This document shows positions 3,082-45,837 of a stretch of 64,000 nt of DNA, in pieces (the stretch's first letter is position 1; each line of letters opens with the position of its first letter). A program made the position numbers and the translations under genes. The notes beneath the pieces are model-generated. The model had not been told where the DNA came from. It saw nothing but the letters and a program-made list of their open reading frames with translations, and did no database searches. Origin of the DNA: Crocinitomicaceae bacterium (GTDB taxonomy: Bacteria; Bacteroidota; Bacteroidia; Flavobacteriales_D; Crocinitomicaceae); contig JBKCEW010000061.1 of assembly GCA_046304235.1 (NCBI GenBank), positions 1,927 through 65,926 of the forward strand. The letters run 5' to 3'.

Positions 3082-3123
3082 AATTCCTTTTTAATCTTTG
3101 ATTTTTTGTTTATACTAGTTTTA

Positions 3124-7694: not shown

Positions 7695-7973
7695 TTAATT
7701 CCTTATTAATTGAACATACCCCTGCCCTTTTATTTTCTCACCACTAGTTCCCTCAATTTCATATTGATAAAAATAAACTCCCTCATCTGCATCTTTACCA
7801 TTAATAGTTCCATCCCATGATTGTGAAGTTTCGGTCATCTCATAGATAGGATTCCCCCATCTATTAAAAATTAAAACATGAATATCTTTTGCATTTTTAA
7901 CAGTAATAAAGAAAGCATCATTTGTTCCGTCATTGTCTGGTGTAAAAACATTTGGAGCTATTTCAACCCTTGG
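7695..7973 (-). other. T9SS type-B C-terminal sorting domain of the giant protein
   Basis: PRVEIAPNVFTPDNDGTNDAFFI...IFNRWGNPIYE...SWDGTINGK...GVYFYQYEI...GYVQLIRN, which is the motif order typical of the CHU_C / gliding-motility C-terminal domain. Confidence 0.8.
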
Positions 7974-13900: not shown

Positions 13901-16900
13901 TAATTGGATCAAAATTTGATCCTTCACATTTTTCCATATTCGATAAATCACTTACGACTGGCGTCTCGTTAATTTTTAAAGCAAAAGACTTAATACTAAA
14001 ACAAGTTCCAGAAGTTTTGTAAATAATAGTATATAGCCCTGGAGTTGATGATGCAATATTTATTTTACCTGTTGAGGAATTAATTGATAGTCCACTAGTA
14101 GAAGAGAAAACTCCTCCTGTAGTTCCAGAAATGACAGGAGTTAAATCTATATTATTCTGACAGACAGAATTAGAGCTGTATATAAACGACGCGTCTTCTG
14201 AAGGATTAACAGTTAGTTTAAATGTTTTTATTGCTCCAGTACAAGCTCCAGAGCGAGGTGTGACAGTAACTGTAGAACTGGCAGTAGAATTGCTAGAATT
14301 AGTGCCTGTAAACGATGCTATGTCACCAATACCTGAACTTGCCAAACCAATAGATGTAATAGAATTCGACCATTCATAAGTTGTACCCAACGTACCTGTG
14401 AATTTTATATCTGTGAAATTTATACCTGAACAAACAGTCTGATCTGGAATATTATTTACTAAAGGAGAATTATTTATTCCTACAGTTGTTGTAGCTGTAT
14501 CTCCACAAGTTCCACTGGTTATATATGTAATTTTATACACTCCTTCAGCCGAAGCTGGGATATTAATAAGGCCTGTAGTTGAATTTATAATCAAACCAAC
14601 TGGAGATGATGTGAATACTCCTCCAGAAGCTCCAGAGATGACAGGAGTAGGATTACTATTTGATGTACAGTACGCAGATTCAGCATAAGATATTTTAACA
14701 TCATCTTTATAGCTAACCGACAAAGTAAAAGATTTAGATGCACCCGTACATGAACCAATTTTAGGAGTGACAATAATGGTTGAAGTAACAAGCGGGTTTG
14801 CTAGTGTTGCTCCGGCACCGGTAAATGCATTTATATTACCCACACCATTAGATGGTAAACCCAGTAAAGCGGGATTACTTGAGGTCCAGTTAAAGGTAGT
14901 ACCTGCAGTACCTGAAAAGTTAATAGCGTTAAAATTACTTCCTGAACAAATTGTTTGAGAAGTAATTGCATTTACGGAAGGATTACTACCAATAGTGATG
15001 GTAAGAGATTGTGAATTTGAACAAGTCCCATTGGTTGTATATGTCAGTGAATAAGTACCAGCATTAGAAGACGCTAGTGTGATCGCTCCAGTATTTGCAT
15101 TAAATATGGCTCCAACTGGAGACATAGTAAAAACACCTCCTTGTTTACCCGTTATATTCGCTATTGGATTAGGATCCAATGTTGAACAAAATGAATTACT
15201 AGGATATGTAAAACTAGGATTCTCTTTAGGATTTACTGTGAGTAAAAAAGTATCTTTAATTCCAACACACGAACCTGAAGTTGGAGTTACTATTATTTTT
15301 CCTGTAATTGAATTTCCGCCAATATTAGTGCCTGTTCCTGTAAATGAGGCAATATTACCTGTCCCTGTTGCTGCTAATCCAATATTGGTATTATCGTTAA
15401 TCCAATTAAAAATTGTTCCTGGAGATCCAGCAAAATTAATCGCATTAAAATTAGAACCTTCACAAATTTGTTGATCTGAAACAGAATTTAAAGTAGGTAA
15501 ATCTGAAATGGCAAAATCAACGATAGAATCGTTAGGGCATGTTCCTTTTGTTTGATAAGTTATTTGATAATAACCCGATTTACTATTTAATAAATTTACA
15601 TTTCCATTTGTATTATTAATCACTAAATCTGCAGAAGAAGAAGTAAAAGTTCCTCCTGTTAAACCAGTAATTATTGGAGTTGGATTTGCATCTAGTTGAC
15701 AAAACGAATTTGATGTATAATTGAAACCTGCGTTATCTAAAGGTTTAACTGTAATCAGAAATTGTTTTGAAATTCCTGTACAACCATTTGCAACTGGTGT
15801 AACATTAATTACTGCGATTTCTGAACTACCTCCAATGCTTGTTCCTTTAGCAGTAAAAGAATTGATATTTCCGGTACCTATTGCAGCCAGACCTATTTTT
15901 GTATTGTTATTGGTCCATTGAAAAACTGGTGTACCTGAACCAGTAAAGTTTATTGTGTTTACATTACTACCATTACATACATCTATATTACTTATTGTAT
16001 TTATAGTTGGAATCTCGTTCACCGTAAAATTAACCGATGCAAATTGAGGACAAACCCCATTAGTAATTACATCGTATCTAATTGTTGTTGAACCAACTGA
16101 AACAGAAGTTACTAATCCAGTAGAACTTACTACTGCCACTGAAGGATTTGAGCTTGTCCATGTTCCACCGGAAGTTCCATTTGTTAATTGTGAATTTGCA
16201 CCTATACAAATAGATGTGGTACCAATTATAGCTGAAACACCTAAAGCCTCTTTAACTGTTACACTAGCACCTACTGTTGTAGAACAATTCGCATTGGTTA
16301 CTTTATAATTTATGGTTGTATTACCCGCAACTTTACCAGTAACTAAACCAAAGGCATTAATCGATGCTACGGTGATATTAGAAGAACTCCAAACTCCTAA
16401 AGGTGTACTATTCGTTAGTTGAATTGTTGAACCTACACAAACATCAGAAACACCATTGATTGCAGGAACAACTGGGTAAGAATTCACATTAATATCTAAC
16501 GTTTTAGAAGAAGAGCAACCATTTGTTGTTACTGTATAACTAATTCTAGATTTACCGGCAGACAATCCACTTACTAATCCATTTAATACGGTAGCTACCA
16601 CAGTACTACTTGAGCTCCAAACTCCACCAATTGTAGCATTTGTTAACGTCAAATTATCACCAATACACAACGAATCTTTTCCTATAATATTTGCAACTAC
16701 TGGTAGAGCAAAAACATTAACCGTAGTACTTATACTATTTGTACATCCACCTATTGCCACAGTATAATTAATAATGGTTGACCCTGCTGATAAAGGTGTA
16801 ACTACCCCTGAACTATTTATAGTTGCAACTCCTAAAGATGTACTTGTCCAAGAACCACCTATAGTTAAAGAAGACAATGTAGTTGTCTCACCTATACAAA

Positions 16901-19900
16901 CATCCGTTTTACCTGTAATTGGTGAAATTGTTGGTTTGGCATTTACAGTGATTCTTCCTGTAGCAAATGAATTTCCACAACCACCTGTAAGCGATATTGA
17001 ATAATCAAAAGTTCCAAATTCTGTTGGTGTACCGCTCAATGTAATTGTATTACTAGCCCAAACAGCATTAATGCCTGTTGGTAACCCAGTAGTACTTCCA
17101 ATTCCTGTAGCACCTGTTGTTGAATGAGTTATTGCTGTTAGCGGAGAATTTATACATAAAGTTGGAGTTGAACTTGCAATACTAGCAGTATTTGCTGAAG
17201 TTACTGTAATGGTTCCTGTTGATGTTATTGTTCCACAACCTCCCGTTAATGTAATCGTATAATTAAATGGTCCTGATGCTGTTGGCGTTCCAGTGATGGT
17301 TGCCACATTTCCTGCCCAGCTTCCTGTAACGCCGGTAGGTAAACCAATAAACGTAGCACCTGTTGCACCTGTGGTTCCATAAGTTATGTCTGTTATTGCC
17401 GTATTGATACATTTCGTTTGGGCATCAGTCCCAACTGCGGAACTTAACGTTGATGTATTATTTGGAGTAACAATGATTGTTCCTGTTGATGTCGTCGTTC
17501 CACAACCACCCGTTAAGTTTACCGTATAATTAAATGGTCCTGATGCTGTTGGAGTTCCAGTAATGGTTGCCACATTTCCTGCCCAGCTTCCTGTAACTCC
17601 GGTAGGTAAACCAACAAACGTTGCTCCTGTTGCACCTGTGGTTCCATAAGTAATAGTCGTTATTGCTGTATTGATACATTTCGTTTGGGCATCAGTCCCA
17701 ACTGCGGAACTTAACGTTGATGTATTGTTTGGAGTGACAATGATTCTTCCTGTTGAAATCGTTGTTCCACAACCTCCTGTTAATGTTACGGTATAATTAA
17801 ACGTTCCCGATGCTGTTGGAGTTCCAGTAATGGTTGCCACATTTCCTACCCAGCTTCCTGTAACGCCTGCCGGCAAACCAACAAACGTTGCTCCTGTAGC
17901 TCCTGTTGTTGCATAAGTAATAGTCGTTATTGCTGTATTGATACATTTCGTTTGGGCATCAGTGCCTACTGCGGAACTTAACGTTGAAGTATTCTCTGGT
18001 GTTACTGTAATGATTCCTGTTGATGTTATTGTTCCACAACCACCCGTTAAGGTTACTGTATAATTAAATGTTCCTGATGCTGTTGGCGTTCCAGTGATGG
18101 TTGCCACATTTCCTGCCCAGCTTCCTGTAACGCCAGAAGGTAAACCACTAAACGTAGCTCCTGTTGAACCTGTGGTTCCATAAGTTATATCTGTTATTGC
18201 CGTATTGACACATTTCGTTTGAGCATCAGTTCCTACTGCGGAACTTAACGTTGATGTATTGTTTGGAGTGACAATGATTCTTCCTGTTGAAATCGTTGTT
18301 CCACAACCTCCTGTTAAGGTTACGGTATAATTAAACGTTCCCGATGCTGTTGGAGTTCCAGTAATGGTTGCCACATTTCCTACCCAGCTTCCTGTAACGC
18401 CAGAAGGTAAACCACTAAACGTAGCTCCTGTTGCGCCTGTGGTTCCATAAGTTATATCTGTTATTGCTGTATTGATACATTTCGTTTGGGCATCAGTGCC
18501 TACTGCGGAACTTAATGCTGAAGTATTCTCTGGTGTTACTGTAATGATTCCTGTTGATGTCGTCGTTCCACAACCACCCGTTAAGGTTACCGTATAATTA
18601 AATGGTCCTGATGCTGTTGGAGTTCCAGTAATGGTTGCCACATTTCCTACCCAGCTTCCTGTAACTCCTGCCGGCAAACCAACAAACGTTGCGCCTGTTG
18701 AACCTGTGGTTCCATAAGTTATATCTGTTATTGCCGTATTGACACATTTCGTTTGAGCATCAGTTCCTACTGCGGAACTTAATGCTGAAGTATTCTCTGG
18801 TGTTACTGTAATGATTCCTGTTGATGTTATTGTTCCACAACCTCCCGTTAATGTAATCGTATAATTAAACGTTCCCGATGCTATTGGCGTTCCAGTGATA
18901 GTTGCCACATTTCCTGCCCAGCTTCCTGTAACGCCAGAAGGTAAACTACTAAACGTAGCTCCTGTTGCGCCTGTGGTTCCATAAGTTATATCTGTTATTG
19001 CTGTATTGATACATTTCGTTTGGGCATCAGTGCCTACTGCGGAACTTAACGTTGATGTATTGTTTGGAGTGACAATGATTCTTCCTGTTGAAATCGTCGT
19101 TCCACAACCTCCCGTTAAGGTTACCGTATAATTAAATGGTCCTGATGCTGTTGGAGTTCCAGTAATGGTTGCCACATTTCCTGCCCAGCTTCCACTTACT
19201 CCTGCCGGCAAACCAACAAACGTTGCACCTGTTGCGCCTGTTGTAGCATAAGTAATAGTCGTTATTGCTGTATTGATACATTTCGTTTGGGCATCAGTCC
19301 CAACTGCGGAACTTAACGTTGAAGTATTATCTGGTGTTACTGTAATGATTCCTGTTGATGTTATTGTTCCACAACCACCCGTTAAGGTTACCGTATAATT
19401 AAATGGTCCTGATGCTGTTGGAGTACCAGTAATGGTTGCCACATTTCCTGCCCAGCTTCCTGTAACCCCAGAAGGTAAACCACTAAACGTAGCTCCTGTT
19501 GCGCCTGTGGTTCCATAAGTTATATCTGTTATTGCTGTACTGATACATTTCGTTTGGGCATCAGTGCCTACTGCGGAACTTAATGCTGAAGTATTCTCTG
19601 GTGTTACTGTAATGATTCCTGTTGATGTTATTGTTCCACAACCTCCCGTTAATGTAATCGTATAATTAAATGGTCCTGATGCTGTTGGGGTTCCAGTAAT
19701 GGTTGCCACATTTCCTGTCCAGCTTCCTGTAACGCCTGCCGGCAAACCAACAAACGTTGAGCCTGTTGCGCCTGTTGTAGCATAAGTAATAGTCGTTATT
19801 GCTGTATTGATACAAGTCGTTTGGGCATCTGTACCTACTGCTGAACTTAAGGTTGATGTGTTGTCCGCACTTACAGTTATTGTACCAGTAGCTACAATGT

Positions 19901-22097
19901 TACCACACCCACCTGTGAGAGGAATTGAATAATTAAACGTTCCAGACTCAGTAGGTGTACCAGTAATAGTTATTGCATTACTTGCCCATATTGCCGAAAC
20001 ACCAGCAGGTAAACCACTAGGAGTGTCTATTCCTGTAGCTCCCGTAGTTGTATGCGTAATCGAAGTTAATGGTGTATTGATACATAAAGTTGGAGTTGAA
20101 CTAGGGAGACCAACTGTATTGAAAGGAATAATTACCACAGGAACCTCTGTTCTTGTAGAAGACAAACAACCAGTTACCTGATCTCTTGCTTCCGCAAAGT
20201 AACTTGTAGATAAAGCTTCATTTGTGGTAAATGTATTACCTGTAAAAATAATTGAACCACCTATTGAACTACTAAACCAATCTACATCTTGTCCAGCGTT
20301 TGGAGTTGCATTCAAATTAACTACACCCGGACCACAACGGGTTTCACCAGATGCAACTGGTGGAGCCAAAATTGAATTAATTGTAACTTTTACTGGCACT
20401 CTGCTTGTTGATTTACAACCTGTTATTTGATTTACAGCATCAGCATAAAGTGTAGTATCTTTATTAATTAGTCCAGTTGTATAGCTGGTACCTGTGTAAA
20501 ATGATGATTCAATTGGATTTGTTGTTAAGTACCATCTAGCATCTTGATTAACCCCATTTAGTACTACATCTAATGTAACTGTACCTTCACCACATCTTGA
20601 TTTATCGATAGGTGTTGGAGCTAAAGGAATAGAATTTACTGTTGCAGTAACAGGTGTTCTATCTACCGATGTACAACCTGTTGTTATATTCTTTGCTTGA
20701 GCATAATAGGTAGTTGTATTTTCAATTTCTGGAGTAGTATAATTCGAAGAACTACCACCGGATAACACAGTTCCACCAGTCGATAATTCATACCATTCAA
20801 TAGATTCTCCAACACCTGGAGTAGCAGATAAATTAACGATACCTTTACCACACCTACTACCTGATGTCGTAATTGGTTTAATCGGTGGCGTATTTACAAT
20901 TGCTTTAATCTCTGTTTTTGATGATAGACAACCTGTTAGTGTGTTTTTTGCTTCAGCATAAAAAGAAGTTGTAGTTGAGATTGTCGGTGTAGTTAATGTT
21001 AACCCTGTTCCCAAAACCGTCACTTGGTCTGCCGCATACCATTTGATAGTAGTTCCAGTAACTGTTGAAACTTTCAAATTAACTTTTCCAGAACCACATC
21101 TAGAACTATCAGAACCTGTGGGAGCTAATGGTGGATTTTTATCCTCATAAATGGTAATACTATCTTTACTAGAACAACCATTTGCGAGAAAACCTGTAAC
21201 AATATATTTAGCTGGACTAGATATAATAATACTTGACGTATTACTCCCTTCCGACCAAGAATAACTCACCCCACCACTAGATGACAATGTAATGTTTTGT
21301 ACATTACAAGTTAACGTATCAATCGACTTGTCATTTATTATGATCGTTGGCAAACCATTTACATTAATGTTGCCAAACAAGGTAGAATCCTCTGAAACGG
21401 GGCAAGCGCCACTTGCTGTAACAGAATAATTATATGGAGATGCTGCATTTGATGTAGGGGCACCATGGATTTTTAAAAAAGGGTATGCATAGGTAAAGGT
21501 GACACCAGCAGGTAATCCTGAAGCTGTAGCAGTAGTTGCATTCGCATCAACTTGGTACTTTATAGTGTCTAAAGGTGAATTTAGACAAACCGTTTGATTC
21601 GATGAAGCTAAAGATGATATTAAGTTAATTTCATTTCCTTTAACATAAAAAGTCTCTGTTTGATCTATGCCAGGACTGAAATCACCTGTACATGTTGCAG
21701 ACATTTGAACAGTATATTTTCCTTTTTTAGAAAAATCTCCGACAGTAGTGACATTAACATATCTTGACCCTCCAGGACTAATAGAAGTTCCTGAATTTAA
21801 AGATGTTGTAAAAGATTGAACTACTGGTCCTGTAATACTTATGGTTATTGTTACTGGAGTAGATACAACATTCAAACTACTTGTACCATTATTTACAATT
21901 TTGACTTGTAGAGTTCTTCCAGTAGCGGGACACATCCCATCTTCAGGATGTGGATCACCACTAGTAGTTAAAGCTGTCGCCGCAACATTAACTGACTGAG
22001 CACTAGACCCTAAAGCAAACACAAAAATAAATAAAGCACCTAACAAAAATTTAAGTGAAAAACTATTTGTGTTCAATATATATTTAATTTTCAACAT
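7695..22097 (-). CDS. Giant (4,800 aa) repetitive cell-surface protein/adhesin, a T9SS substrate with a type-B (gliding-motility-associated) C-terminal sorting domain
   Basis: A single uninterrupted 14,403-nt ORF. It has a signal peptide (MLKIKY...FVFALGSSAQS), serial Cys-containing Ig/PKD/BIG2-like repeat families, and a terminal ~90 aa with FTPDNDGTNDAF..NRWGN..WDG..GVYFYQY. Confidence 0.9.
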   Translation of the reverse strand: MLKIKYILNTNSFSLKFLLGALFIFVFALGSSAQSVNVAATALTTSGDPHPEDGMCPATGRTLQVKIVNNGTSSLNVVSTPVTITISITGPVVQSFTTSLNSGTSISPGGSRYVNVTTVGDFSKKGKYTVQMSATCTGDFSPGIDQTETFYVKGNEINLISSLASSNQTVCLNSPLDTIKYQVDANATTATASGLPAGVTFTYAYPFLKIHGAPTSNAASPYNYSVTASGACPVSEDSTLFGNINVNGLPTIIINDKSIDTLTCNVQNITLSSSGGVSYSWSEGSNTSSIIISSPAKYIVTGFLANGCSSKDSITIYEDKNPPLAPTGSDSSRCGSGKVNLKVSTVTGTTIKWYAADQVTVLGTGLTLTTPTISTTTSFYAEAKNTLTGCLSSKTEIKAIVNTPPIKPITTSGSRCGKGIVNLSATPGVGESIEWYELSTGGTVLSGGSSSNYTTPEIENTTTYYAQAKNITTGCTSVDRTPVTATVNSIPLAPTPIDKSRCGEGTVTLDVVLNGVNQDARWYLTTNPIESSFYTGTSYTTGLINKDTTLYADAVNQITGCKSTSRVPVKVTINSILAPPVASGETRCGPGVVNLNATPNAGQDVDWFSSSIGGSIIFTGNTFTTNEALSTSYFAEARDQVTGCLSSTRTEVPVVIIPFNTVGLPSSTPTLCINTPLTSITHTTTGATGIDTPSGLPAGVSAIWASNAITITGTPTESGTFNYSIPLTGGCGNIVATGTITVSADNTSTLSSAVGTDAQTTCINTAITTITYATTGATGSTFVGLPAGVTGSWTGNVATITGTPTASGPFNYTITLTGGCGTITSTGIITVTPENTSALSSAVGTDAQTKCISTAITDITYGTTGATGATFSGLPSGVTGSWAGNVATITGTPTASGPFNYTVTLTGGCGTITSTGIITVTPDNTSTLSSAVGTDAQTKCINTAITTITYATTGATGATFVGLPAGVSGSWAGNVATITGTPTASGPFNYTVTLTGGCGTTISTGRIIVTPNNTSTLSSAVGTDAQTKCINTAITDITYGTTGATGATFSSLPSGVTGSWAGNVATITGTPIASGTFNYTITLTGGCGTITSTGIITVTPENTSALSSAVGTDAQTKCVNTAITDITYGTTGSTGATFVGLPAGVTGSWVGNVATITGTPTASGPFNYTVTLTGGCGTTTSTGIITVTPENTSALSSAVGTDAQTKCINTAITDITYGTTGATGATFSGLPSGVTGSWVGNVATITGTPTASGTFNYTVTLTGGCGTTISTGRIIVTPNNTSTLSSAVGTDAQTKCVNTAITDITYGTTGSTGATFSGLPSGVTGSWAGNVATITGTPTASGTFNYTVTLTGGCGTITSTGIITVTPENTSTLSSAVGTDAQTKCINTAITTITYATTGATGATFVGLPAGVTGSWVGNVATITGTPTASGTFNYTVTLTGGCGTTISTGRIIVTPNNTSTLSSAVGTDAQTKCINTAITTITYGTTGATGATFVGLPTGVTGSWAGNVATITGTPTASGPFNYTVNLTGGCGTTTSTGTIIVTPNNTSTLSSAVGTDAQTKCINTAITDITYGTTGATGATFIGLPTGVTGSWAGNVATITGTPTASGPFNYTITLTGGCGTITSTGTITVTSANTASIASSTPTLCINSPLTAITHSTTGATGIGSTTGLPTGINAVWASNTITLSGTPTEFGTFDYSISLTGGCGNSFATGRITVNAKPTISPITGKTDVCIGETTTLSSLTIGGSWTSTSLGVATINSSGVVTPLSAGSTIINYTVAIGGCTNSISTTVNVFALPVVANIIGKDSLCIGDNLTLTNATIGGVWSSSSTVVATVLNGLVSGLSAGKSRISYTVTTNGCSSSKTLDINVNSYPVVPAINGVSDVCVGSTIQLTNSTPLGVWSSSNITVASINAFGLVTGKVAGNTTINYKVTNANCSTTVGASVTVKEALGVSAIIGTTSICIGANSQLTNGTSGGTWTSSNPSVAVVSSTGLVTSVSVGSTTIRYDVITNGVCPQFASVNFTVNEIPTINTISNIDVCNGSNVNTINFTGSGTPVFQWTNNNTKIGLAAIGTGNINSFTAKGTSIGGSSEIAVINVTPVANGCTGISKQFLITVKPLDNAGFNYTSNSFCQLDANPTPIITGLTGGTFTSSSADLVINNTNGNVNLLNSKSGYYQITYQTKGTCPNDSIVDFAISDLPTLNSVSDQQICEGSNFNAINFAGSPGTIFNWINDNTNIGLAATGTGNIASFTGTGTNIGGNSITGKIIVTPTSGSCVGIKDTFLLTVNPKENPSFTYPSNSFCSTLDPNPIANITGKQGGVFTMSPVGAIFNANTGAITLASSNAGTYSLTYTTNGTCSNSQSLTITIGSNPSVNAITSQTICSGSNFNAINFSGTAGTTFNWTSSNPALLGLPSNGVGNINAFTGAGATLANPLVTSTIIVTPKIGSCTGASKSFTLSVSYKDDVKISYAESAYCTSNSNPTPVISGASGGVFTSSPVGLIINSTTGLINIPASAEGVYKITYITSGTCGDTATTTVGINNSPLVNNIPDQTVCSGINFTDIKFTGTLGTTYEWSNSITSIGLASSGIGDIASFTGTNSSNSTASSTVTVTPRSGACTGAIKTFKLTVNPSEDASFIYSSNSVCQNNIDLTPVISGTTGGVFSSTSGLSINSSTGKINIASSTPGLYTIIYKTSGTCFSIKSFALKINETPVVSDLSNMEKCEGSNFDPISFTGTVGASFSWTNSNQSIGLTSSGQGNISSFKATGTSLGGSPTSAVISVIPIMNGCSGTSKSMILTTNSLDNPAFAYGSNSYCFTELNPTPTISGRTGGTFSVFPASGLLIDASTGTLDLTSATAGNYQITYNTNGFCKNDSTITMSIGSAPLAQPVTSQTVCQGSSFNAIDFQGAPGTVYEWTNSNTAIGLGDSGSGNINSFVANGTSVGGSTISSIITVMPKIGTCIGIPITFSLTVKPLDNATFNYTNTSFCKNQTNPTPIISGLTGGTFTSTPIGISMNSVGTINLATSTSGNYTVSYTTHGECPNVSTFPISIGSSPTVNSVSDQTVCSGSNFSKISFTGNPGTVFNWTNTNSAIGLSSSGTGDISSFKSLSVGSSIIVVTPIIGTCAGTSKTFTLSVNAVQNSTIQYGQSSYCITDSDPTPVQTGPLNGVFSASPTGLILNSTSGMINLATSSPGNYIVSYNLSAQCSTSSSTTISVGSAPTVNTVSVAPICNGATFNAITFTGTPGTQFHWTNSNINIGLPASGTGNIASFVGVNNSKSDISSNITVTPVVGTCIGTPKTFNLTIRPSDDPSFSYSSTNICFNDSDISPSINGTSGGVFTSVPIGLSLNSNSGKINVSNSLPGNYNVTYLTNGNCPKAKTEAIVINPMPYVNNLTVSPKCQGSIFSSITFTGSQNTTFNWKNSNTTIGLSAAGVGLIPSFTASGTIKNGASAIGIITVSPEINGCKGGAMSFPVTVLSLDDPTFKYPKSSICQTDLNPLPIITGTTGGVFTSSPSGLSLNPTTGRITIGTSFVGNYNITYTTNGSCPKDTTISIQLNSLPEVNTISNQNRCFGDSFNPITFSGTPNTKFNWVNSNSNIGLPASGNGNIAAFIAKGTVFGGSSIVSNVIVTPEINGCFGSTKSFDLTVNPIDNPAFHYSDNSFCTTQSDPTPIIDGTVGGVFSSQPIGLSINTSTGKINLISSTPGMYQIKYTTPGNCKDDSTVTIGIGSNPSVDDVDDQSFCQGDMFDPVNFTGNAGTIFEWVNSNINIGIPASGAGNIIGFKALGTIDGGADAIASITVTPRVGTCIGSHVNYKYKVRANPKIVASIANSSKQDTSFCKGGSAILSATGASKNENFIWTPHTSLVGNLGIGATVTTKTDTTQQYIVRGQSQFGCYNYDTLSIYVYNPKVDQKRDTMVCAGSLINSIPFVSNLNGTTFEWANSNANIGLGFNGTGNINGFIANNNTNTVKQTAIISVTPKYLISSINKTCVGPVMKFSIDVNKLDDPSFNGYLAQYCANETSNTFPTITGFKGGVFSALPSGLALNSNSGEIFPISSKAGSYSVKYTTNGVCPKSDSIYLFINPLITATISGADTVCVNAVSPQIKFKGFNGVAPYIFKYKVNGGAIQTISSDPGKEEVSVAVPTNKSGIYTYELVSVEESSSSQCKNSNVFGIQNVIVNELPTAQITTTDASVCLGANSPEIRITGINGVSPFTFTYFISKDGNPFGPSQNVSTGQGQHLASIPVNTSSSGIYNYTVNIVKNGDDLSCSNNINISQTVTIKPLPTAIVTSKPSGVCMNGDATIEFTASNGTPPFTFVYSINNSGNQTIKTNNTSYTITLKANTNSSGIFNYKIVSISDGDNTSCQNNNVNANVDLIVTPGTKVNKVQDINVCVNEKSDTIEFTGGVSGTKYEWYSNNTTVGVNGSGIGNILPFVSKNTSGSTTNISRITVIPSVGQCIGDTMKFDIVVRPKPKAKINAPNTVCPGDSILLEGVGNELKYVWTPNVSCITCNPVIAKPTQNTTYKAFVTDKYNCFDSTEFDVVVYRRPDINVDEPVVCGEPQLVILKGKDNNTYTYSDGVLDGVPFMPKKGINPYVVFVKDNLGCKNSDTLNVYVIDKPVSKFTATPEAGLASDVKPLNVLLTNKSSAASDFEWYFRNGDQSPLIKNTLEPVTALYKKPGIYVITLISKNGKCIDSSLISIKIDKLDTPRVEIAPNVFTPDNDGTNDAFFITVKNAKDIHVLIFNRWGNPIYEMTETSQSWDGTINGKDADEGVYFYQYEIEGTSGEKIKGQGYVQLIRN
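8680..16013 (-). repeat. Diverged protein-level repeats. 13 copies of a ~90-aa module (C..GS.F..I.F.G..GT.F.W.N.N..IGL...G.GNI..F) are present, and 12 are each followed by a second ~70-aa module (F.Y....C.....PTP.I.G..GG.F.S.P.GL.....TG.I.L..S..G.Y...Y.T.G.C)
   Basis: I counted the F/Y-x-W-x-N-x-N-xx-IGL motif 13 times in the translation. The first 11 dual modules are contiguous with a period of ~163 aa. The series is interrupted by an Ig-like segment and by three ~100-aa repeats (~8,960-9,860). Confidence 0.75.
16014..16937 (-). repeat. Four BIG2-like (bacterial Ig-like group 2) repeats of ~77 aa
   Basis: Repeating pattern I.G....C.G....L....GG.W.SS...VA.....G.V....AG...I.Y.V...C. Confidence 0.65.
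16938..20108 (-). repeat. Twelve-unit in-frame tandem array, 267 nt (89 aa) per core unit. Ten near-identical core units span 17181-19850, flanked by one diverged unit on each side
   Basis: Core unit: LSSAVGTDAQTKCINTAIT[DT]ITY[GA]TTGATGATF.GLP.GVTGSW.GNVATITGTPTASG[PT]FNYTVTLTGGCGT..STG.I.VTP.NTS. The L codon of unit 1 is at 19848-19850 and that of unit 10 at 17445-17447, and the difference is exactly 9 x 267 nt. Confidence 0.9.
20109..21137 (-). repeat. Four ~85-aa Ig-like repeats (..RCG.G.V.L.A.......WY.........G..YTTP.I..TT.YYA.A.N..TGC.S..R..V...V)
   Basis: The RCG...WY/WF...TGC pattern recurs four times in the translation. This type of repeat is commonly seen N-terminal in CHU_C-type proteins. 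Confidence 0.65.
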
Positions 22098-22328: not shown

Positions 22329-22383
22329 CACTGTAATTTTGTTTATTTAAAATTAGTCTAAATAAATATAAGCAATTATCGAT

Positions 22384-22707
22384 ATGATTAAAGTAACAGA
22401 TAACGCTAAAAAACAAGCCATTAGATTAATGGAAGATGAAAACAAGGAAGGATATTTCATCCGTGTTGGAGTTCAAGGAGGTGGATGTTCAGGTTTAATG
22501 TATCAACTTACATTCGACAATGAAATGAAAGAAGATGATAAAGAATTTTTTGATAACGACATTAAAGTGGTGGTTGACAAAAAAAGTTTCTTGTATTTAA
22601 TCGGAACTACACTTGATTTTTCAGGAGGATTAAATGGAAAAGGATTTGTTTTCCAAAATCCAAATGCAGACAGAACGTGTGGTTGTGGAGAAAGTTTCTC
22701 CGTTTAA
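22384..22707 (+). CDS. sufA: Fe-S cluster assembly A-type carrier (HesB/IscA/SufA family)
   Basis: 107 aa, with GGGCSG near the N-terminus and a C-terminal CGCGESF motif. It is the first gene of the suf cluster. Confidence 0.85.
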
Positions 22708-22718
22708 AAAATTCAACA

Positions 22719-24170
22719 ATGGCATATACAGAAAATGAATTAGCCAAAGATTTACAAAATCAAGAATACAAATTTGGTTTTGTAACCAACATTGAAGCAG
22801 ATCAAGCTCCAAAAGGATTAAATGAAGACATAATTCGCTTTATTTCTGCTAAGAAAAATGAGCCTGAATGGCTATTAGAATATCGATTGAATGCTTTCAA
22901 AACATGGTTACAAATGACTGAACCTGAATGGGCTCATGTACATTACGAAAAACCAAAATTTCAAGATATCATTTATTATTCTGCACCAAAACAAAAGAAA
23001 AAATACGAAAGTTGGGATGATGTTGAACCTGAATTGAAAGAAACCATGAAGAAATTGGGGATTTCAATGGATGAACAACAACGTCTTACTGGTACAAACG
23101 TAGCTGTAGATTTCGTTATGGATAGTGTTTCTGTTGCAACTTCATTCAAGGCTAAATTACAAGAATTAGGAATTATCTTTTGTTCTTTTTCAGATGCAGT
23201 TCAAGAACATCCTGAATTAGTTAAAAAATACATGGGTACAGTAGTACCACATACAGATAATTTCTACGCAGCTTTGAATAGTGCTGTATTCACAGATGGT
23301 TCTTTTTGCTACATACCTAAAGGTGTTAGATGCCCAATGGAATTATCTACTTACTTCCGTATAAACGAAGGTGGTACAGGTCAATTCGAAAGAACCTTAG
23401 TAGTTGCAGATGAAGGAGCTTATGTTTCTTATTTAGAAGGATGTACAGCTCCTCAACGTGATGAAAATCAATTACACGCAGCGGTTGTGGAATTGATTGC
23501 ATTGGATAATGCAGAAATCAAATATTCAACTGTACAAAACTGGTATCCTGGTGATGCTGAAGGAAAAGGAGGTGTTTTCAACTTTGTAACAAAACGTGGT
23601 TTGTGCGAGAAAAATGCTAAAATTTCGTGGACTCAGGTTGAAACTGGTTCTGCTGTAACGTGGAAGTATCCATCTTGTGTGCTTAAAGGAGAAAATTCGG
23701 TAGGAGAATTTTATTCAGTAGCAGTAACTAATAATTACCAACAAGCGGATACTGGAACGAAAATGATTCATTTAGGAAAGAATACTAAAAGTACGATTAT
23801 CTCAAAAGGTATTTCTGCTGGTAAATCGCATAATTCTTACCGTGGTTTGGTGCAAATTCACAAAAACGCAACAAACGCTCGTAACTTTTCACAATGTGAT
23901 TCTTTGTTAATGGGTGATACATGTGGTGCGCATACTTTTCCATATATAGAATGTAAAAACAGCAGTGCGAAAATCGAACACGAAGCGACTACTTCAAAAA
24001 TTGGGGAAGACCAAATATTTTACTGTTTACAACGTGGTATCAGCGAAGAAAAAGCGATTAGCTTGATTGTGAACGGTTACTGTAAAGAAGTACTAAACCA
24101 ATTACCTATGGAATTTGCCGTTGAGGCTCAAAAACTGCTTGCGATTAGTTTGGAAGGATCAGTTGGATAA
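22719..24170 (+). CDS. sufB: Fe-S cluster assembly scaffold protein SufB
   Basis: 483 aa from the ATG at 22719 ([10 protein letters not shown]...). The track start at 22677 overlaps sufA and was rejected. The SufB core is highly conserved ([38 protein letters not shown]). Confidence 0.95.
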
Positions 24171-24174
24171 ATTT

Positions 24175-24333
24175 AGATTGAAAGATTACAGATTGGAAGA
24201 TTGCAGATTACAGATTACAGATTACAGATTACAGATTGCAGATTGGAAGATTGAAGATTGCAGATTACAGATTGGAAGATTGAAGATTGAAGATTGAAGA
24301 TTGAAGATTTGAAGATTGCAGATTACAGATTAG
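24175..24333 (+). repeat. Microsatellite-like array of 22 direct units of 7-8 nt, AGATT[AG][CAG](A)
   Basis: Unit count by hand: AGATTAC x7, AGATTGC x4, AGATTGA x5, AGATTGGA x3, plus AGATTGAA, AGATTTGA and AGATTAG. The array starts 5 nt after the sufB stop and decays into an ATTA-rich sequence up to the next ATG. Confidence 0.95.
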
Positions 24334-24371
24334 AAAATTAAACATTAAGCATTACAAATTAAACATTATAA

Positions 24372-24785
24372 ATGGCTACTATTAAAAACTTTGAAGAGTT
24401 AGATGTTTGGAAACTGGGTATGGAGTTATGCTCTGATATCTACAGTCTCACAAATACTGATTTATTTTCAAAAGATTATAGTTTAAAAGACCAAACTAGA
24501 CGTGCAGCAATTTCTGTTCCATCTAATATTTCCGAAGGTTATGAAAGAGAAGGGATAAATCAATTCATCTACTTTCTAGTAATTGCAAAAGGTTCGTGTG
24601 GAGAATTAAGAACACAATTGAAAATTGCTCTTAATTTAAAATATATTAACGAAAAAGAATATTATAGACTAAATGATAAATGTTTATCAACTAGTAAACA
24701 ACTTGCTGGATTTATTAAATATTTGAGAAATTATAAACAAAATGATAAAAATTACGATTCGCAAATTCAAACTATCAATTTGTAA
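24372..24785 (+). CDS. Four-helix-bundle protein of the 23S rRNA-intervening-sequence protein family (Avd-like superfamily)
   Basis: 137 aa. The signature is L.VW.....L....Y.....F...E.Y.L..Q.RRAA.S...NI.EG..R........F...A.GS..E..T.L. Confidence 0.85.
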   Translation: MATIKNFEELDVWKLGMELCSDIYSLTNTDLFSKDYSLKDQTRRAAISVPSNISEGYEREGINQFIYFLVIAKGSCGELRTQLKIALNLKYINEKEYYRLNDKCLSTSKQLAGFIKYLRNYKQNDKNYDSQIQTINL

Positions 24786-24802
24786 TCTGCAATTTGTAAT
24801 TT
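24761..24802 (-). repeat. Six heptamer units that are the reverse complement of the AGATTRC family (GCAAATT CAAACTA TCAATTT GTAATCT GCAATTT GTAATTT)
   Basis: These units overlap the last 7 sense codons and the stop codon (24783-24785) of the four-helix-bundle gene. GTAATCTGCAAT at 24782-24793 is the exact complement of ATTGCAGATTAC in the left array (e.g. 24200-24211). Confidence 0.8.
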
Positions 24803-24818
24803 GATAATTATAAGGAAA

Positions 24819-25571
24819 ATGATTAAAATAGATAACTTACACGCTTCCATTAATGGGAAGGAAATATTGAAAGGCTTAAACTTAGAAGTGAAAGCTGGAG
24901 AAGTTCACGCGATTATGGGTCCAAATGGTGCGGGTAAAAGCACCTTGGCTTCTGTATTAGCTGGTCGTGAAGAATATGAAATCACAGAAGGTGAAGTGAC
25001 TTTTGATGGAAAGGATTTATTAGAACTTTCTACGGAAGACAGAGCACGTGAAGGATTGTTCTTGGCGTTTCAATATCCGGTGGAAATTCCTGGAGTTTCT
25101 AATGTAAATTTCTTGCGTACTGCATTAAACGAAAAACGTGAGTATTTAGGTCAAGATCCTATTTCAGCGAAAGACTTTATGCAAATGGTGCGTGATAAAT
25201 CAAAGATAGTTGAATTGGATTCTAAATTGGCTAATAGATCTGTGAACGAAGGTTTCTCTGGCGGTGAGAAAAAACGTAACGAGATTTTCCAAATGGCGAT
25301 GTTAGAACCGAAATTAGCAATTCTAGACGAGACTGATTCTGGGTTAGATATTGATGCTTTACGTATTGTAGCAACTGGTGTAACTAAATTGAAATCAGAA
25401 GAAAATGCAACTATAGTAATCACTCACTACCAACGCTTATTAGACTACATCGTACCGGATTACGTACACGTTCTTTACAACGGAAAAATTGTAAAAACGG
25501 GACCAAAAGAATTAGCATTGGAGTTAGAAGAAAAAGGATACGATTGGATTAAGGCAGAGTTTGGGGAGTAG
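24819..25571 (+). CDS. sufC: Fe-S cluster assembly ATPase SufC
   Basis: 250 aa from the ATG at 24819 (MIKIDNLHA...). It has Walker A GPNGAGKST, the ABC signature FSGGEKKR and Walker B LAILDETDSGLD. Confidence 0.95.
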   Translation: MIKIDNLHASINGKEILKGLNLEVKAGEVHAIMGPNGAGKSTLASVLAGREEYEITEGEVTFDGKDLLELSTEDRAREGLFLAFQYPVEIPGVSNVNFLRTALNEKREYLGQDPISAKDFMQMVRDKSKIVELDSKLANRSVNEGFSGGEKKRNEIFQMAMLEPKLAILDETDSGLDIDALRIVATGVTKLKSEENATIVITHYQRLLDYIVPDYVHVLYNGKIVKTGPKELALELEEKGYDWIKAEFGE

Positions 25572-25572
25572 G

Positions 25573-25641
25573 CTTCGACAAGCTCAGCCTGACAGACTTC
25601 GACAAGCTCAGTCTGACTAAATCGACAGGCTCAGTCTGACA
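25573..25641 (+). repeat. Three tandem copies (24-nt period) of a 21-22-nt REP-like element, CTTCGACAAGCTCAGYCTGACA
   Basis: Copies lie at 25573-25594, 25597-25617 and 25621-25641 (the third is diverged: ATCGACAGGCTCAGTCTGACA). The array starts 2 nt after the sufC stop and ends 38 nt before the sufD ATG. Confidence 0.9.
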
Positions 25642-25679
25642 TTAATTAAAATAAAACAGGGTAACCAAATTAGGTTAAA

Positions 25680-26942
25680 ATGGAAGAAACTAAAAAATTT
25701 CACGAGCGCATAGCAACAAAGGGGTATACTTTGGTATTACCTCAAGAACTTCGTGAAAAATCATTAGAAATATTAAACGAAACTGCTTTCCCAACGACGA
25801 AAACGGAAGCGTGGAAATATACACGTACAACTCGTATTAGTAATGGAACTTTTCAATTAGCAAATCCAACTATACAATCTGTTACTCCTTATTTGATTGA
25901 AGGATTAAACGGAAACATATTAGTATTTGTAAATGGATTTTACCAAGCAAATCTTTCAACAATCATAGATACTAAAGGACTTCACGTTTCGTCACTTGCA
26001 TGTACTCCACACGATTGGGTGAAAGCAAATACGAAAGTAAGTTTGGAAGGAGAAGTATTTAATGCTTTGAATACCGCATTTACTACTGATGGAGTATGTA
26101 TTGAAATTGCTAAAAATGCGATTATCGAGGAACCAATACAGTTAATTTATATTACAACTGGTTCGGCTGTTTTATCATCGGTTCGCAATATTTTAATTGC
26201 AAACGACAATTCAGAGGCGACTGTTACGATGAATTACGTGGGTGAAAATGCAGAGGCAAACTTTACGAATGTAATTACAGAAGTAACTGTAAAAACAAAC
26301 GCTTCGTTGTCTATTCATAAAGTTCAACACGAAAACAATACCAATTTCCATATTAACACGGAAACAGTATCACAAGGAAGAGATTCTCGTTTTACTTTAT
26401 CTACTTCTACCTTTTCGGGAGCAATCGTACGTAATAATGTATATGTTCACGTGGATGGTGAAAATGCTGAAACAAACTTATATGGTTTGTATTTGACAGA
26501 CGACAAACAGTTAGTAGATAACCATACCGTGATTGACCACAAAGTACCAAACTGTAATTCAAACGAATTATACAAAGGGGTGTTGGATGGACAATCAACC
26601 GGTGTTTTTAACGGAAAAGTATATGTTCGTGAACAAGCTCAAAAAATCAATGCTTTTCAATCAAATGGGAATGTATTACTGAGTGATAACGCTTCGATGA
26701 ACTCAAAACCAGAATTGGAAATCTATGCGGATGATGTTAAATGTTCTCACGGATCTACAACAGGTCAAATTGACGAAGAAGCAATATTCTATTTACGTGC
26801 GAGAGGAATTTCTGAAAAATCAGCAAAAAGTTTAATGATAAACGGATTTGTTGGTGAAGTAGTTGACCAAATTTCAAACGAAATTGTTCGTGAACAGATT
26901 ACAAAATTGATGGCGCAGAAGTTAGGATATTCTTTTGAATAA
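25680..26942 (+). CDS. sufD: Fe-S cluster assembly protein SufD
   Basis: 420 aa. The SufBD beta-helix C-terminal region (ELEIYADDVKCSHGSTTGQIDEEAIFYLRARGI) and its operon position support the call. Confidence 0.9.
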   Translation: MEETKKFHERIATKGYTLVLPQELREKSLEILNETAFPTTKTEAWKYTRTTRISNGTFQLANPTIQSVTPYLIEGLNGNILVFVNGFYQANLSTIIDTKGLHVSSLACTPHDWVKANTKVSLEGEVFNALNTAFTTDGVCIEIAKNAIIEEPIQLIYITTGSAVLSSVRNILIANDNSEATVTMNYVGENAEANFTNVITEVTVKTNASLSIHKVQHENNTNFHINTETVSQGRDSRFTLSTSTFSGAIVRNNVYVHVDGENAETNLYGLYLTDDKQLVDNHTVIDHKVPNCNSNELYKGVLDGQSTGVFNGKVYVREQAQKINAFQSNGNVLLSDNASMNSKPELEIYADDVKCSHGSTTGQIDEEAIFYLRARGISEKSAKSLMINGFVGEVVDQISNEIVREQITKLMAQKLGYSFE

Positions 26943-26976: not shown

Positions 26977-27714
26977 ATGGAAGAACGTTTAGATAAAATA
27001 CTTATTCAGCGCGGTTTGATTACTACTCGAGTTCGAGCAGAAAAAATGATTCTCGAAACAGGAGTAAAAGTGGGGGGTAAACTCATTAATAAACCTGGAA
27101 AAAAATTTCCGTTGGATGTAGAAATTGAAATGCTAGCAGAAGAAATACCTTGGGTTTCTCGCGGCGCTTTCAAACTTATTCACGGATTAGATTTTTGGAA
27201 TCTTTCTGTTGCTGGACTAACCGCAATGGATTTAGGTGCTTCCACTGGTGGATTTACAGAAGTATTGCTTTCCAGAGATATCGAAAAAGTATATTGTGTT
27301 GACGTAGGTACAAATCAATTGCATCAAACGATAAAGTCCAACGATAAAGTCATTGATATTAGTAAGACTCATATCCGTGAATTGACGAAACACCAAGTTT
27401 CAGAGTTAGTTGATTTAGTGGTGATTGACGTATCTTTTATTTCGTTGGAAAAAGTGTTGCCTTTTGTGCATCCGTTTTTAAAAGACGAAGGACAAATCAT
27501 CACCTTGGTAAAACCACAATTTGAAGTCGGTAAAGAAAACATTTCGAAGGGAGGAATTGTTAAAAACACACTACTCTACCCTACGGTAATTGAAAATATC
27601 AAAAAAGTAAGTGAGCGTTGTAATTTGGAATACCGAGGACATATAGACTCACCAATTCTTGGAGGTGATGGAAACAAAGAATTTTTAATGTGGCTTACTA
27701 AAAAGCCTATATAA
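26977..27714 (+). CDS. tlyA: TlyA-family rRNA (cytidine-2'-O)-methyltransferase (S4 domain + FtsJ-like MTase)
   Basis: N-terminal S4-like RLDKILIQRGL..TR..A...I, the WVSRGAFKL motif, and SAM-binding DLGASTGGFTEVLL. Confidence 0.85.
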   Translation: MEERLDKILIQRGLITTRVRAEKMILETGVKVGGKLINKPGKKFPLDVEIEMLAEEIPWVSRGAFKLIHGLDFWNLSVAGLTAMDLGASTGGFTEVLLSRDIEKVYCVDVGTNQLHQTIKSNDKVIDISKTHIRELTKHQVSELVDLVVIDVSFISLEKVLPFVHPFLKDEGQIITLVKPQFEVGKENISKGGIVKNTLLYPTVIENIKKVSERCNLEYRGHIDSPILGGDGNKEFLMWLTKKPI

Positions 27715-29387: not shown

Positions 29388-29693
29388 ATGGTAGAGTTAG
29401 AAAATAATATTGTTTCGATGTTAAAGACAATCTATGACCCGGAAATTCCAGTGGATATTTACGAGTTAGGATTGATTTATGAGGTGAAAATTTCCAAAGA
29501 AAACGACGTTGTAATAGATATGACATTGACTTCTCCAAATTGTCCCGTAGCAGAAACGTTACCAAAAGAAGTAGAAGACAAAGTAAAATCGGTAGAAGGT
29601 GTTGCCTCATGTATCGTGAATATTGTCTTTGACCCTTCGTGGGATAAGGATATGATGTCTGAAGAAGCAAAACTAGAATTAGGCTTTTTGTAA
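29388..29693 (+). CDS. sufT: DUF59/MIP18-family Fe-S assembly protein (SufT-like)
   Basis: 101 aa, with IYDPEIPV.IYELGLIY and the LTSPNCPVAE motif typical of DUF59. Confidence 0.8.
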   Translation: MVELENNIVSMLKTIYDPEIPVDIYELGLIYEVKISKENDVVIDMTLTSPNCPVAETLPKEVEDKVKSVEGVASCIVNIVFDPSWDKDMMSEEAKLELGFL

Positions 29694-29836
29694 CTTCGAC
29701 AAGCTCAGTCTGACAAAAAGACTTTATAAATTTAATTTGTCAGATTGAGCATGTCGAAATCAGACAAATTAAATTTATATTTTGTATATTTAAGAAAGAC
29801 ACTTTGCTCATTTTTGTCACGCTGAGCTTGTCGAAG
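29694..29836. repeat. Cluster of three REP-like elements, one direct (29694-29715) and two inverted (29738-29758, 29815-29836)
   Basis: CTTCGACAAGCTCAGTCTGACA / TGTCAGATTGAGCATGTCGAA / TGTCACGCTGAGCTTGTCGAAG. The first two are complementary at 19 of 21 positions. Confidence 0.9.
29725..29779 (+). terminator. Long AT-rich hairpin (17-bp perfect stem) followed by a T-rich tract; possible terminator of the suf operon
   Basis: tataaatttaatttgtc (29725-29741) is the exact complement of gacaaattaaatttata (29763-29779), followed by tttttgtatattt. The stem is entirely A/T-rich, so stability is uncertain. Confidence 0.4.
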
Positions 29837-29870
29837 TGGACATAAAAAAGCAAAGTAAAAACAAAGTGTT

Positions 29871-45802: not shown

Positions 45803-45837
45803 ATTCAAAGATTACAGATTACAGATTGAAAGATTAC
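45801..45837 (+). repeat. Solo array of 5 units of the AGATTAC-family heptamer (AGATTCAA AGATTAC AGATTAC AGATTGAA AGATTAC)
   Basis: This is the same unit family as 24175-24333. It fills the gap between convergent PAP2 (stop at 45800-45802) and gpsA, and covers the gpsA stop codon (45834-45836). Confidence 0.9.

Follow-up and report, generated by a model that had tools for sequence, protein, structure and literature searches.

An intervening-sequence-like hairpin cassette between sufB and sufC of a Crocinitomicaceae bacterium: a four-helix-bundle protein gene bracketed by inverted heptamer arrays

Intervening sequences (IVSs) and the associated S23p/IVP proteins (PF05635) have been known for decades, and their origin and function are described as unclear (PMC4990558). 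In the 23S rRNA gene of Coxiella burnetii, a 28-bp stem encloses an S23p open reading frame (ORF) in its loop. Two to three tandem heptamers (GACAGAT) precede this ORF, their number varying between strains; RNase III cuts within the stem where the first heptamer begins, and the ORF itself is decaying and apparently untranslated (PMC4990558). PF05635 is a large family, and its function was still called unknown there and in a 2024 study of the candidate phyla radiation (CPR). IVP genes have also been reported between cas genes (PMC3936711). Here we describe a 64,000-nt stretch of DNA from a Crocinitomicaceae bacterium (contig JBKCEW010000061.1, positions 1,927 to 65,926; hereafter the window), in which a PF05635 gene, termed the IVP gene below, sits between sufB and sufC of a suf operon and is bracketed by inverted arrays of a heptamer. 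Related loci are numbered with the prefix L.

The upstream host gene, sufB (22719..24170, + strand; PF01458 SUFBD_core, E 2e-82; 75-99% identity to SufB of related loci), ends with a TAA at 24168-24170. The downstream gene, sufC (24819..25571, + strand; PF00005 ABC_tran, E 7e-26; 66-100% identity to SufC of related occupied loci), begins with an ATG at 24819, 10 nt past the last paired base of the helix described below. The stop and start codons are thus 648 nt apart, as stated in a first-pass annotation made from the sequence. That annotation had placed a 137-aa gene of the IVS-protein family in the gap, and profile searches confirmed it. The IVP gene (24372..24785, + strand) matched PF05635 23S_rRNA_IVP (E 9e-34; 116.3 bits, cutoff 33.8; profile positions 1-105 of 106) and TIGR02436 'four helix bundle protein' (E 1e-33; 115.7 bits, cutoff 24). 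With phmmer, the PDB entries 2GSC (XCC0516; E 1.3e-16) and 2RLD (BT; E 2.6e-4) were recovered, and homologues with E<1e-5 numbered 844. The 2GSC entry consists of five chains of the XCC0516 sequence; a toroidal homopentamer is known for XCC0516 only (cited in PMC4990558). No recombinase, reverse transcriptase or transposase gene was found in the neighbourhood of the cassette, in line with the lack of an accompanying mobility gene noted in the annotation.

The dN/dS ratio of the IVP gene was 0.03-0.2, and 0.02-0.03 in less saturated pairs. Judged by these ratios, the gene is under purifying selection and is a working gene, in contrast to the S23p ORF that decays in Coxiella. The annotation had raised a selfish element as one option; a decaying selfish ORF is unlikely in view of the purifying selection. 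The protein diverges faster than the Suf proteins, the window and L005 being 76% identical in IVP and 99% in Suf. Synonymous divergence showed another pattern in two pairs of loci, being lower in the IVP gene than in the flanking sufB and sufC (0.12 vs 0.52-0.64 for L009 and L012; 0.51 vs 0.91-0.96 for L017 and L019). Possible reasons are an RNA-level constraint inside the ORF or recent exchange of the cassette among lineages.

The left array (24175..24333, + strand) consists of exactly the 22 direct AGATT(R)(N) units that had been annotated. The units are 7 or 8 nt long and start at positions 24175 to 24327, with a spacing of 7 nt in 16 cases and 8 nt in five. AGATTAC occurs seven times, AGATTGA five times, AGATTGC four times and AGATTGGA three times, next to three singletons, and the AGATT core is unchanged in all 22. 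Tandem Repeats Finder reported period 7 with 20.7 copies, and double-unit matches in the window amounted to 25 where 2.9±1.9 were expected (0/100 shuffles as high). Between the array and the IVP start codon lies an A/T-rich spacer with degenerate ATTAAAC-type units (24334..24371, + strand), which is not paired with the right arm in the predicted fold and would serve as the translation-initiation region of the IVP gene.

The right arm (24756..24809, + strand) carries reverse-complement heptamers, the best of them at 24775-24803. Positions 24761-24803 read gcaaatt, caaacta, tcaattt, gtaatct, gcaattt and gtaattt. Six such units had been annotated; the array is present, although only the last four are good reverse-complement heptamers and the other two are weak. 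In three units AATTT replaces AATCT, and pairing is kept there as G.U. Complementarity of the arms at 24782-24793 was reproduced: GTAATCTGCAAT (24782) exactly complements ATTGCAGATTAC, present on the left at 24200, 24257 and 24315. Overall, the inverted-repeat arms are 28-35 nt long and 80-86% complementary. The right arm encodes the last ~8 codons and the stop codon of the 137-aa gene, whereas 125-aa orthologues end ahead of it. Within the window, no reverse-complement heptamer match was found on the opposite strand outside 24776-24795. A solo mini-array of an AGATT-type unit (tagattcaaagattacagattacagattgaaagattac) lies at 45803-45837, without an IVP gene, where two convergent genes meet, one on the + strand (45143-45802) and one on the - strand (45834-46832).

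Folding in silico, proposed in the annotation, gave a minimum free energy (MFE) structure of 24150-24830 with a 48-bp long-range helix. Its 5' strand is a left-array register (24213..24266, + strand) and its 3' strand is the right arm (24756-24809). Other left-array registers, 7 nt apart, were almost equivalent for pairing, and the predicted ensemble probability that bases 24766-24803 of the right arm pair with the left array was about 1.0. The arm-only duplex had -47.2 kcal/mol compared with -21.3±3.8 kcal/mol for 300 dinucleotide shuffles (z=-6.9). The IVP ORF, which is on the same strand as the suf genes, lies in the loop of this predicted stem.

The locus therefore resembles the rRNA IVSs of Coxiella burnetii and Leptospira, in which a PF05635 ORF likewise lies in the loop of a long stem formed by complementary flanks. 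In both settings the ORF is sense to the host transcript and has no mobility gene. The Coxiella heptamer GACAGAT is close to the window's unit when this is read as TACAGAT/TGCAGAT, and copy number varies by strain in both. However, the window's cassette lies in the spacer of a protein-coding operon and not in an rRNA helix, and so lacks the defining feature of an IVS; a search of 23800-25800 detected no rRNA or other Rfam family, its E-value mode yielding sub-threshold miRNA/snoRNA noise only. The left array has 22 units compared with two to three in Coxiella, the ORF is under strong purifying selection rather than decaying, and excision by RNase III, demonstrated in Coxiella, is inferred for the cassette.

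We investigated whether this architecture extends to the protein family by comparing 93 non-redundant PF05635 genes with 223 neighbouring control genes from the same loci. The score was that of a local alignment of the upstream flank with the reverse-complemented downstream flank; counts of shared 6-mers were too noisy for this purpose (chance background about 6). The median inverted score was 15 for PF05635 genes and 8 for controls (Mann-Whitney p=3e-35), and 82% of the PF05635 genes exceeded the 95th percentile of the controls, while their direct-orientation scores were at background level. Arrays of period 6-9 were ~14-fold denser next to IVP genes, with 128 in the 9% of sequence adjoining them and 89 in the remaining 91%. 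The best arrays had periods of 7 (68 arrays), 8 (41) and 9 (12). The sample included 59 non-suf loci from Bacteroidales, Acidobacteriota, Planctomycetota, Verrucomicrobiota, Gammaproteobacteria (Grimontia, Vibrio) and candidate phyla, with units such as CAAGTTN/AACTTGN, GGGCTAA/CCCTTAG, GTTCAAG/CTTGAAC and GGGTCCT/CAGGACC. An Rfam search of 18 other IVP loci in gathering mode gave no match.

Paralogues on a single contig carry distinct units, each complementary to its own partner arm (L050, L038, L053). Recent IVP duplicates, as in L076 and L077, have a common unit; the gene order in L076 is IVP-ABC-IVP-ABC. Since units differ and partner arms match, we conclude from these alignments that what is conserved in PF05635 flanks is that the two arms complement each other in cis. 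We rejected, as a general rule, that the heptamer is a genome-wide signal acting in trans, given the different units of single-contig paralogues. The annotation had suggested that other paralogues might be flanked by inverted AGATTAC-type arrays. Most sampled PF05635 genes are indeed bracketed by inverted arrays, but the heptamer itself is nothing special, other lineages having very different units of 7-9 nt. The IVS-like geometry that it had described, an ORF in the loop of a long imperfect stem, is real and recurs in every orthologue and around most sampled members of the family.

Several further arrangements were seen in these loci. Hairpins without an ORF, with forward and reverse arrays of the local unit as arms, occur in L041 (5161-5236) and L055 (5168-5236 and 5922-6067), and also upstream of the IVP gene in L009, L010 and L012 (about 3845-3995). 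They occupy spacers of operons that contain IVP cassettes and resemble empty cassettes. In L038, L052 and L053 (UBP2 / Edwardsbacteria metagenome-assembled genomes [MAGs]), a stretch of about 5 kb contains three to four IVP paralogues, which are position-by-position orthologues across the genomes, each with its own unit. In L034, a 213-aa ORF (316-954) is flanked by array hairpins of an 8-nt unit (CAATATGC/ATTGGCAT) at 212-301 and 961-987. Its HxHxDH-type motif suggests a candidate hydrolase of the metallo-beta-lactamase fold. Genes other than IVP may thus be enclosed by such array hairpins.

At the sufB-sufC junction the cassette has a long history. All close IVP homologues on inspected contigs were located between sufB and sufC. 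A scan based on the IVP alignment, with one genome per species, yielded 80 loci, 21 of which had the order sufA-sufB-IVP-sufC-sufD, the other 59 being the non-suf loci mentioned above. Together with the contigs of close homologues, ~30 occupied loci were available, from Lishizhenia, Fluviicola, Crocinitomicaceae, Vicingus and other Bacteroidota MAGs. Identity to the window across occupied loci was 75-99% for SufB and 49-76% for IVP. We conclude from this distribution that the cassette is ancient at this junction and largely vertically inherited, and not a recent or sporadic insertion. Comparison with the junctions of relatives, which the annotation had called for, found the flanking repeats retained: every occupied suf locus has forward short-unit repeats upstream of IVP and their reverse complement downstream. 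The annotation would have counted relatives without the repeats, or paralogues without arrays, as refutation; neither was the rule in the loci compared. The arm units differ by clade: the window's clade has CAGATTR/YAATCTG, L024 and L025 have GAAAGTT/AACTTTC, and the units of L040 and L043 are AACGTT-type. Across suf loci it is the architecture that is conserved rather than the repeat sequence.

The left array varies at the strain level. Four contigs with an identical IVP protein (P0028; L001-L004) had upstream gaps of 110, 161, 193 and 215 nt. Contigs with the window's own IVP protein had 22, 22, 22 and 21 units, and strains with 96% identity had 14 and 6. The right arm was identical among same-species contigs despite this variation. 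The left array is thus a strain-level variable-number tandem repeat (VNTR) of 6-22 units, and such VNTRs probably break metagenome assemblies at the cassette locus. In a tree of IVP proteins, the suf copies with the CAGATT unit were monophyletic, with L024 and L025 as sister, and L040 and L043 were placed elsewhere. A second, separate insertion at the sufB-sufC junction (L040, L043) is therefore possible. In L043, ~1 kb (2992-4000) with an extra ORF (3004-3468) lies between sufB and the IVP cassette.

We also retrieved 120 metagenome loci by a degenerate pattern for empty sufB-sufC junctions; in total, 113/142 sampled junctions were empty. One of these, L163, is closely related to the window (SufC 89%, C-terminus of SufB 97% identical) and falls inside the occupied clade, beside the Fluviicola locus L020, in a neighbour-joining tree of SufC. 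The sporadic presence and absence typical of IVSs was thus observed here too. Deeper in this single-protein tree, which is weak at that depth, occupied and empty junctions were interleaved. The L163 junction, TAA-taatcaataattacttaaaaa-ATG, is a clean 21-nt spacer without heptamers. The window's 3' remainder, gataattataaggaaa-ATG (24801-24818), is similar to this spacer and overlaps the last 3 nt of the cassette as drawn. From this resemblance the insert extends from 24171 to about 24803 (+ strand; 633 nt, 3' boundary approximate). No direct repeat indicating a target-site duplication was evident at the cassette boundaries in comparison with the empty site of L163.

Two Bacteroidota lineages carry an IVP cassette elsewhere in the operon. 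In L062 (4001-4390) and L167 (4248-4607), the sufB-sufC junction is empty and a cassette with its own inverted arrays lies between sufS and sufE. This could be chance for a multi-copy family, or the suf operon could be a preferred host. The empty site of L163 and the cassettes at sufS|sufE bear out the 'discrete cassette' of the annotation. Of its further suggestion of an insertable element, the discrete unit with an empty site stands, and recent or sporadic insertion is not supported in view of the ~30 occupied loci.

The orientation of the cassette and the nature of its mismatches bear on whether the arms pair in RNA. In the window's stem 8/48 pairs are G.U, seven of the eight with G on the left arm, and the duplex energy was -38.8 kcal/mol for the sense and -27.1 kcal/mol for the antisense strand. 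The sense strand was the more stable in 61 loci as opposed to 32 (p=0.002), and arm mismatches were G.U-compatible in 102 cases and A.C in 70 (p=0.018). Unrestricted RNAduplex runs on 220-nt flanks produced very long spurious duplexes and were used for relative comparisons only. This strand bias, a comparison of predicted energies, supports pairing of the sense RNA but is not decisive. IVP genes were co-oriented with the upstream gene in 83/90 cases (92%), with a median gap of 66 nt. No Bacteroidetes -7 box (TAnnTTTG) was found on the + strand of 22341-26038 and no terminator-like hairpin in the cassette region; sigma-70-type promoter matches in the cassette were at the level of shuffled sequence, a promoter type that does not cover Bacteroidota. 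The predicted context of the cassette fits transcription by read-through.

Taken together, we propose, with a probability of roughly 0.6, that the arms pair at the RNA level, looping out the IVP ORF, and that RNase III probably cuts the resulting stem, the cassette being an IVS-type hairpin in an mRNA operon. Transcription of the suf operon would start upstream of sufA and run through the cassette. The right arm (about 24756-24809) would then pair with any complementary register of the much longer left array, and the resulting helix of ~48 bp, tolerant of G.U pairs, would loop out the ORF. By analogy with the rRNA IVSs that carry a PF05635 protein, this helix would be a substrate of RNase III. 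Cleavage would release the IVP mRNA and separate sufAB from the segment of sufC and downstream genes; if uncut, the helix would keep the sufB stop and the sufC start close to each other. The IVP protein would be made and functional. Over time, the arrays would lengthen and shorten by slippage, the arms would co-evolve and the cassette could be lost cleanly as a unit. The sequences show the anatomy of the cassette and how it has evolved; we infer that pairing would take place in RNA rather than in DNA, that RNase III would cleave the stem and that the cassette may affect suf expression. The Coxiella IVS, with similar heptamers and a stem cut by RNase III, makes an RNA stem with probable RNase III processing the best explanation.

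Several observations weigh against this proposal. A stem alone leaves unaccounted for why its arms are tandem arrays with an invariant 5-nt core, gives no reason for a left array (159 nt) that far exceeds the right arm (about 45 nt), and does not explain the partnerless solo array of the AGATT-type unit at 45803-45837. Because of these three points, recognition of the arrays by IVP, as DNA or as RNA, and a neutral origin by slippage plus conversion stay alive as alternatives. The asymmetry between strands is modest; control genes showed a bias in the same direction, although a weaker one (-1.8 kcal/mol, p=0.009), and phylogeny makes the suf-linked loci non-independent. In the 137-aa variants, ribosomes on the last IVP codons would briefly open the right arm. 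Finally, arm complementarity could be maintained at the DNA level without any function in RNA.

The alternative that survives best is a DNA-level element. The inverted arrays would be subterminal repeats bound as double-stranded DNA by an IVP oligomer or a host factor, comparable to the multiple transposase-binding sites at transposon ends, and the cassette would be a mobile or formerly mobile element for which IVP acts as a factor of mobility or maintenance. That the ORF is a mobility component is an old idea (Ralph and McClelland 1993, as cited in PMC4990558). Short-unit arrays with an invariant core and a specific unit for each paralogue suit a sequence-specific binder, and the presence or absence of the cassette as a unit, as in L163, suits an element. 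So do the occupation of different suf junctions by lineage and of other operons (L076; cas operons, PMC3936711) and the ORF-less hairpins of L041, L055, L009, L010 and L012, which are similar to miniature inverted-repeat transposable elements (MITEs). However, the 137-aa four-helix bundle has no catalytic domain, no transposase or recombinase is nearby, a target-site duplication is not evident and the suf-linked copies are mostly vertically inherited. The G.U bias of the sense strand is unexpected if DNA alone mattered, and a DNA transposon would not be expected to share the upstream gene's orientation in 92% of cases unless insertions were filtered by selection. We consider this explanation unlikely.

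Slightly less likely, in our view, is a neutral by-product, in which slippage-prone microsatellites have arms homogenised by intramolecular template switching or gene conversion, the arrays are functionless and IVP is a passenger of the operon. The copy numbers of 6, 14, 21 and 22 units among strains and the upstream gaps of L001-L004 (110-215 nt) are consistent with slippage, as are the very unequal left and right arrays and the solo array at 45803-45837. Intergenic heptamer direct repeats to which no function is attributed are documented in other bacteria (PMC4679880). An inverted layout around 82% of the sampled members, across phyla and through complete turnover of the unit, is nevertheless hard to sustain without selection or a mechanism intrinsic to the element. 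Furthermore, the right arm is invariant where the left array varies, and the Coxiella stem is a demonstrated RNase III site.

More doubtful again is autoregulation by RNA binding, in which an IVP oligomer would bind the single-stranded heptamers of its own transcript much as the trp RNA-binding attenuation protein (TRAP) wraps triplets set at intervals, controlling translation of IVP or sufC or the stability of the transcript, with the inverted arm as a competing anti-array. A tandem period with a conserved core and variable linker, a unit of its own for each paralogue and a left array much longer than a stem requires would all fit such binding, and so would the five chains of 2GSC and the toroidal XCC0516 homopentamer (PMC4990558). 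Sequence-specific RNA binding is, however, not evidenced for any PF05635 member, and many loci have only three to four units (L006, L014, L018). By far the least probable is a suf-specific role of IVP in Fe-S assembly, which would account for its long stay in the operon: the position is kept in ~30 loci with IVP under purifying selection and L062 and L167 carry IVP at a further, independent suf junction (sufS|sufE), but PF05635 occurs in many unrelated operons and rRNA genes, the 113 empty junctions include one inside the occupied clade, finding IVP at another suf junction in ~1 of 20 unbiased loci is no more than chance allows for a multi-copy family, and IVP diverges far faster than the Suf proteins.

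Beyond the RNA-stem reading of this locus, a wider hypothesis can be framed, which we hold only tentatively and regard as unlikely in its entirety. PF05635 genes with inverted arrays of 7-9-nt units would be widespread, self-contained 'protein-coding IVS' cassettes of rRNA genes and mRNA operons, neutralised by the stem and RNase III, with each IVP oligomer recognising its own arrays and IVP acting as the IVS maintenance or mobility factor. Such cassette-by-cassette recognition would account for units that differ between paralogues. In a literature search that was incomplete, neither a paper nor an Rfam family came to light that describes the inverted-array rule around PF05635 genes. If correct, the rule would give free-standing members of the family across phyla a common diagnostic structure, in which inverted arrays of a fast-evolving unit of 7-9 nt surround the ORF, and would connect rRNA IVSs with copies residing in operons (suf, ABC transporters, cas operons; PMC3936711). 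It would also offer an RNA-level way for a gene to reside in an essential operon without breaking it, and would open the IVS/IVP question to experiment in cultivable Bacteroidota.

Other described systems share individual features with the cassette. The accessory variability determinant (Avd) of diversity-generating retroelements (DGRs) has a nucleic-acid-associated role and is a DGR factor within the PF05635 family. It belongs to the same homologous four-helix-bundle fold family, and the IVP protein matched the PHROG 'Avd protein of DGR' weakly (E 4.5e-4), far below its PF05635 and TIGR02436 matches. Unlike Avd loci, the window has no nearby reverse transcriptase, template repeat or variable repeat; the ORFs within ~5 kb are suf genes, a tlyA-like gene and a giant adhesin gene, and identity with a DGR was rejected. 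A PADLOC search for defence systems gave no match.

Repeats of the STRR type (short tandemly repeated repetitive) also consist of heptamers, and reportedly occur in the RNase P RNA gene of heterocyst-forming cyanobacteria, going by a title of Vioque from 1997. Intergenic tandem TAACTGA heptamers are found in Beggiatoaceae, Cyanobacteria and some Bacteroidetes, mostly in forward orientation upstream of start codons (PMC4679880). TAACTGA and STRR repeats resemble the arrays in being tandem 7-nt intergenic units of variable copy number, but in the text searched they are described as direct only, without an inverted partner or a link to PF05635. Repetitive extragenic palindromic (REP) hairpins, bacterial interspersed mosaic elements (BIMEs) and MITEs are dispersed inverted-repeat elements in the intergenic spaces of operons, and in this respect the ORF-less array hairpins of related loci are like them. 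The arms of the cassette are, in contrast, tandem lineage-specific units of 7-9 nt and not a fixed palindrome, and there is no partner transposase, of the REP-associated tyrosine transposase (RAYT) or another type, and no target-site duplication. Inverted arrays at both ends do correspond to the terminal inverted repeats of a DNA transposon or MITE, as tandem rather than unique termini; membership in this class was rejected because neither a target-site duplication nor a transposase was found in the neighbourhood.

The genes around the cassette are sufA, B, C, D, a tlyA-like gene, sufS, sufE, a DUF59 gene and the adhesin gene. The tlyA-like gene (26977-27714) sits between sufD and sufS in the operon of the window's clade, and its orthologues have S4 and FtsJ methyltransferase domains. 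The 4800-aa ORF (7695-22097), on the - strand, lies directly upstream of the suf operon; it has many Ig-like repeats and includes ten 267-nt tandem repeats of 87% identity (17200-19856). Relatives keep an ORF at this position, and their counterparts have a CHU_C C-terminal domain.

A second dispersed repeat family of about 20-24 nt (CTTCGACAAGCTCAGTCTGACA) is present at 25573-25641 and 29693-29837, with six copies in total where 0.02 were expected. The sufC-sufD spacer holds three copies in tandem, and beyond the last gene of the suf cluster there are three others (one forward, two inverted), two of which form a 27-nt pair that is 93% complementary and 91 nt apart. The set of copies in the sufC-sufD spacer varies among same-species contigs, with an extra inverted copy in L212.

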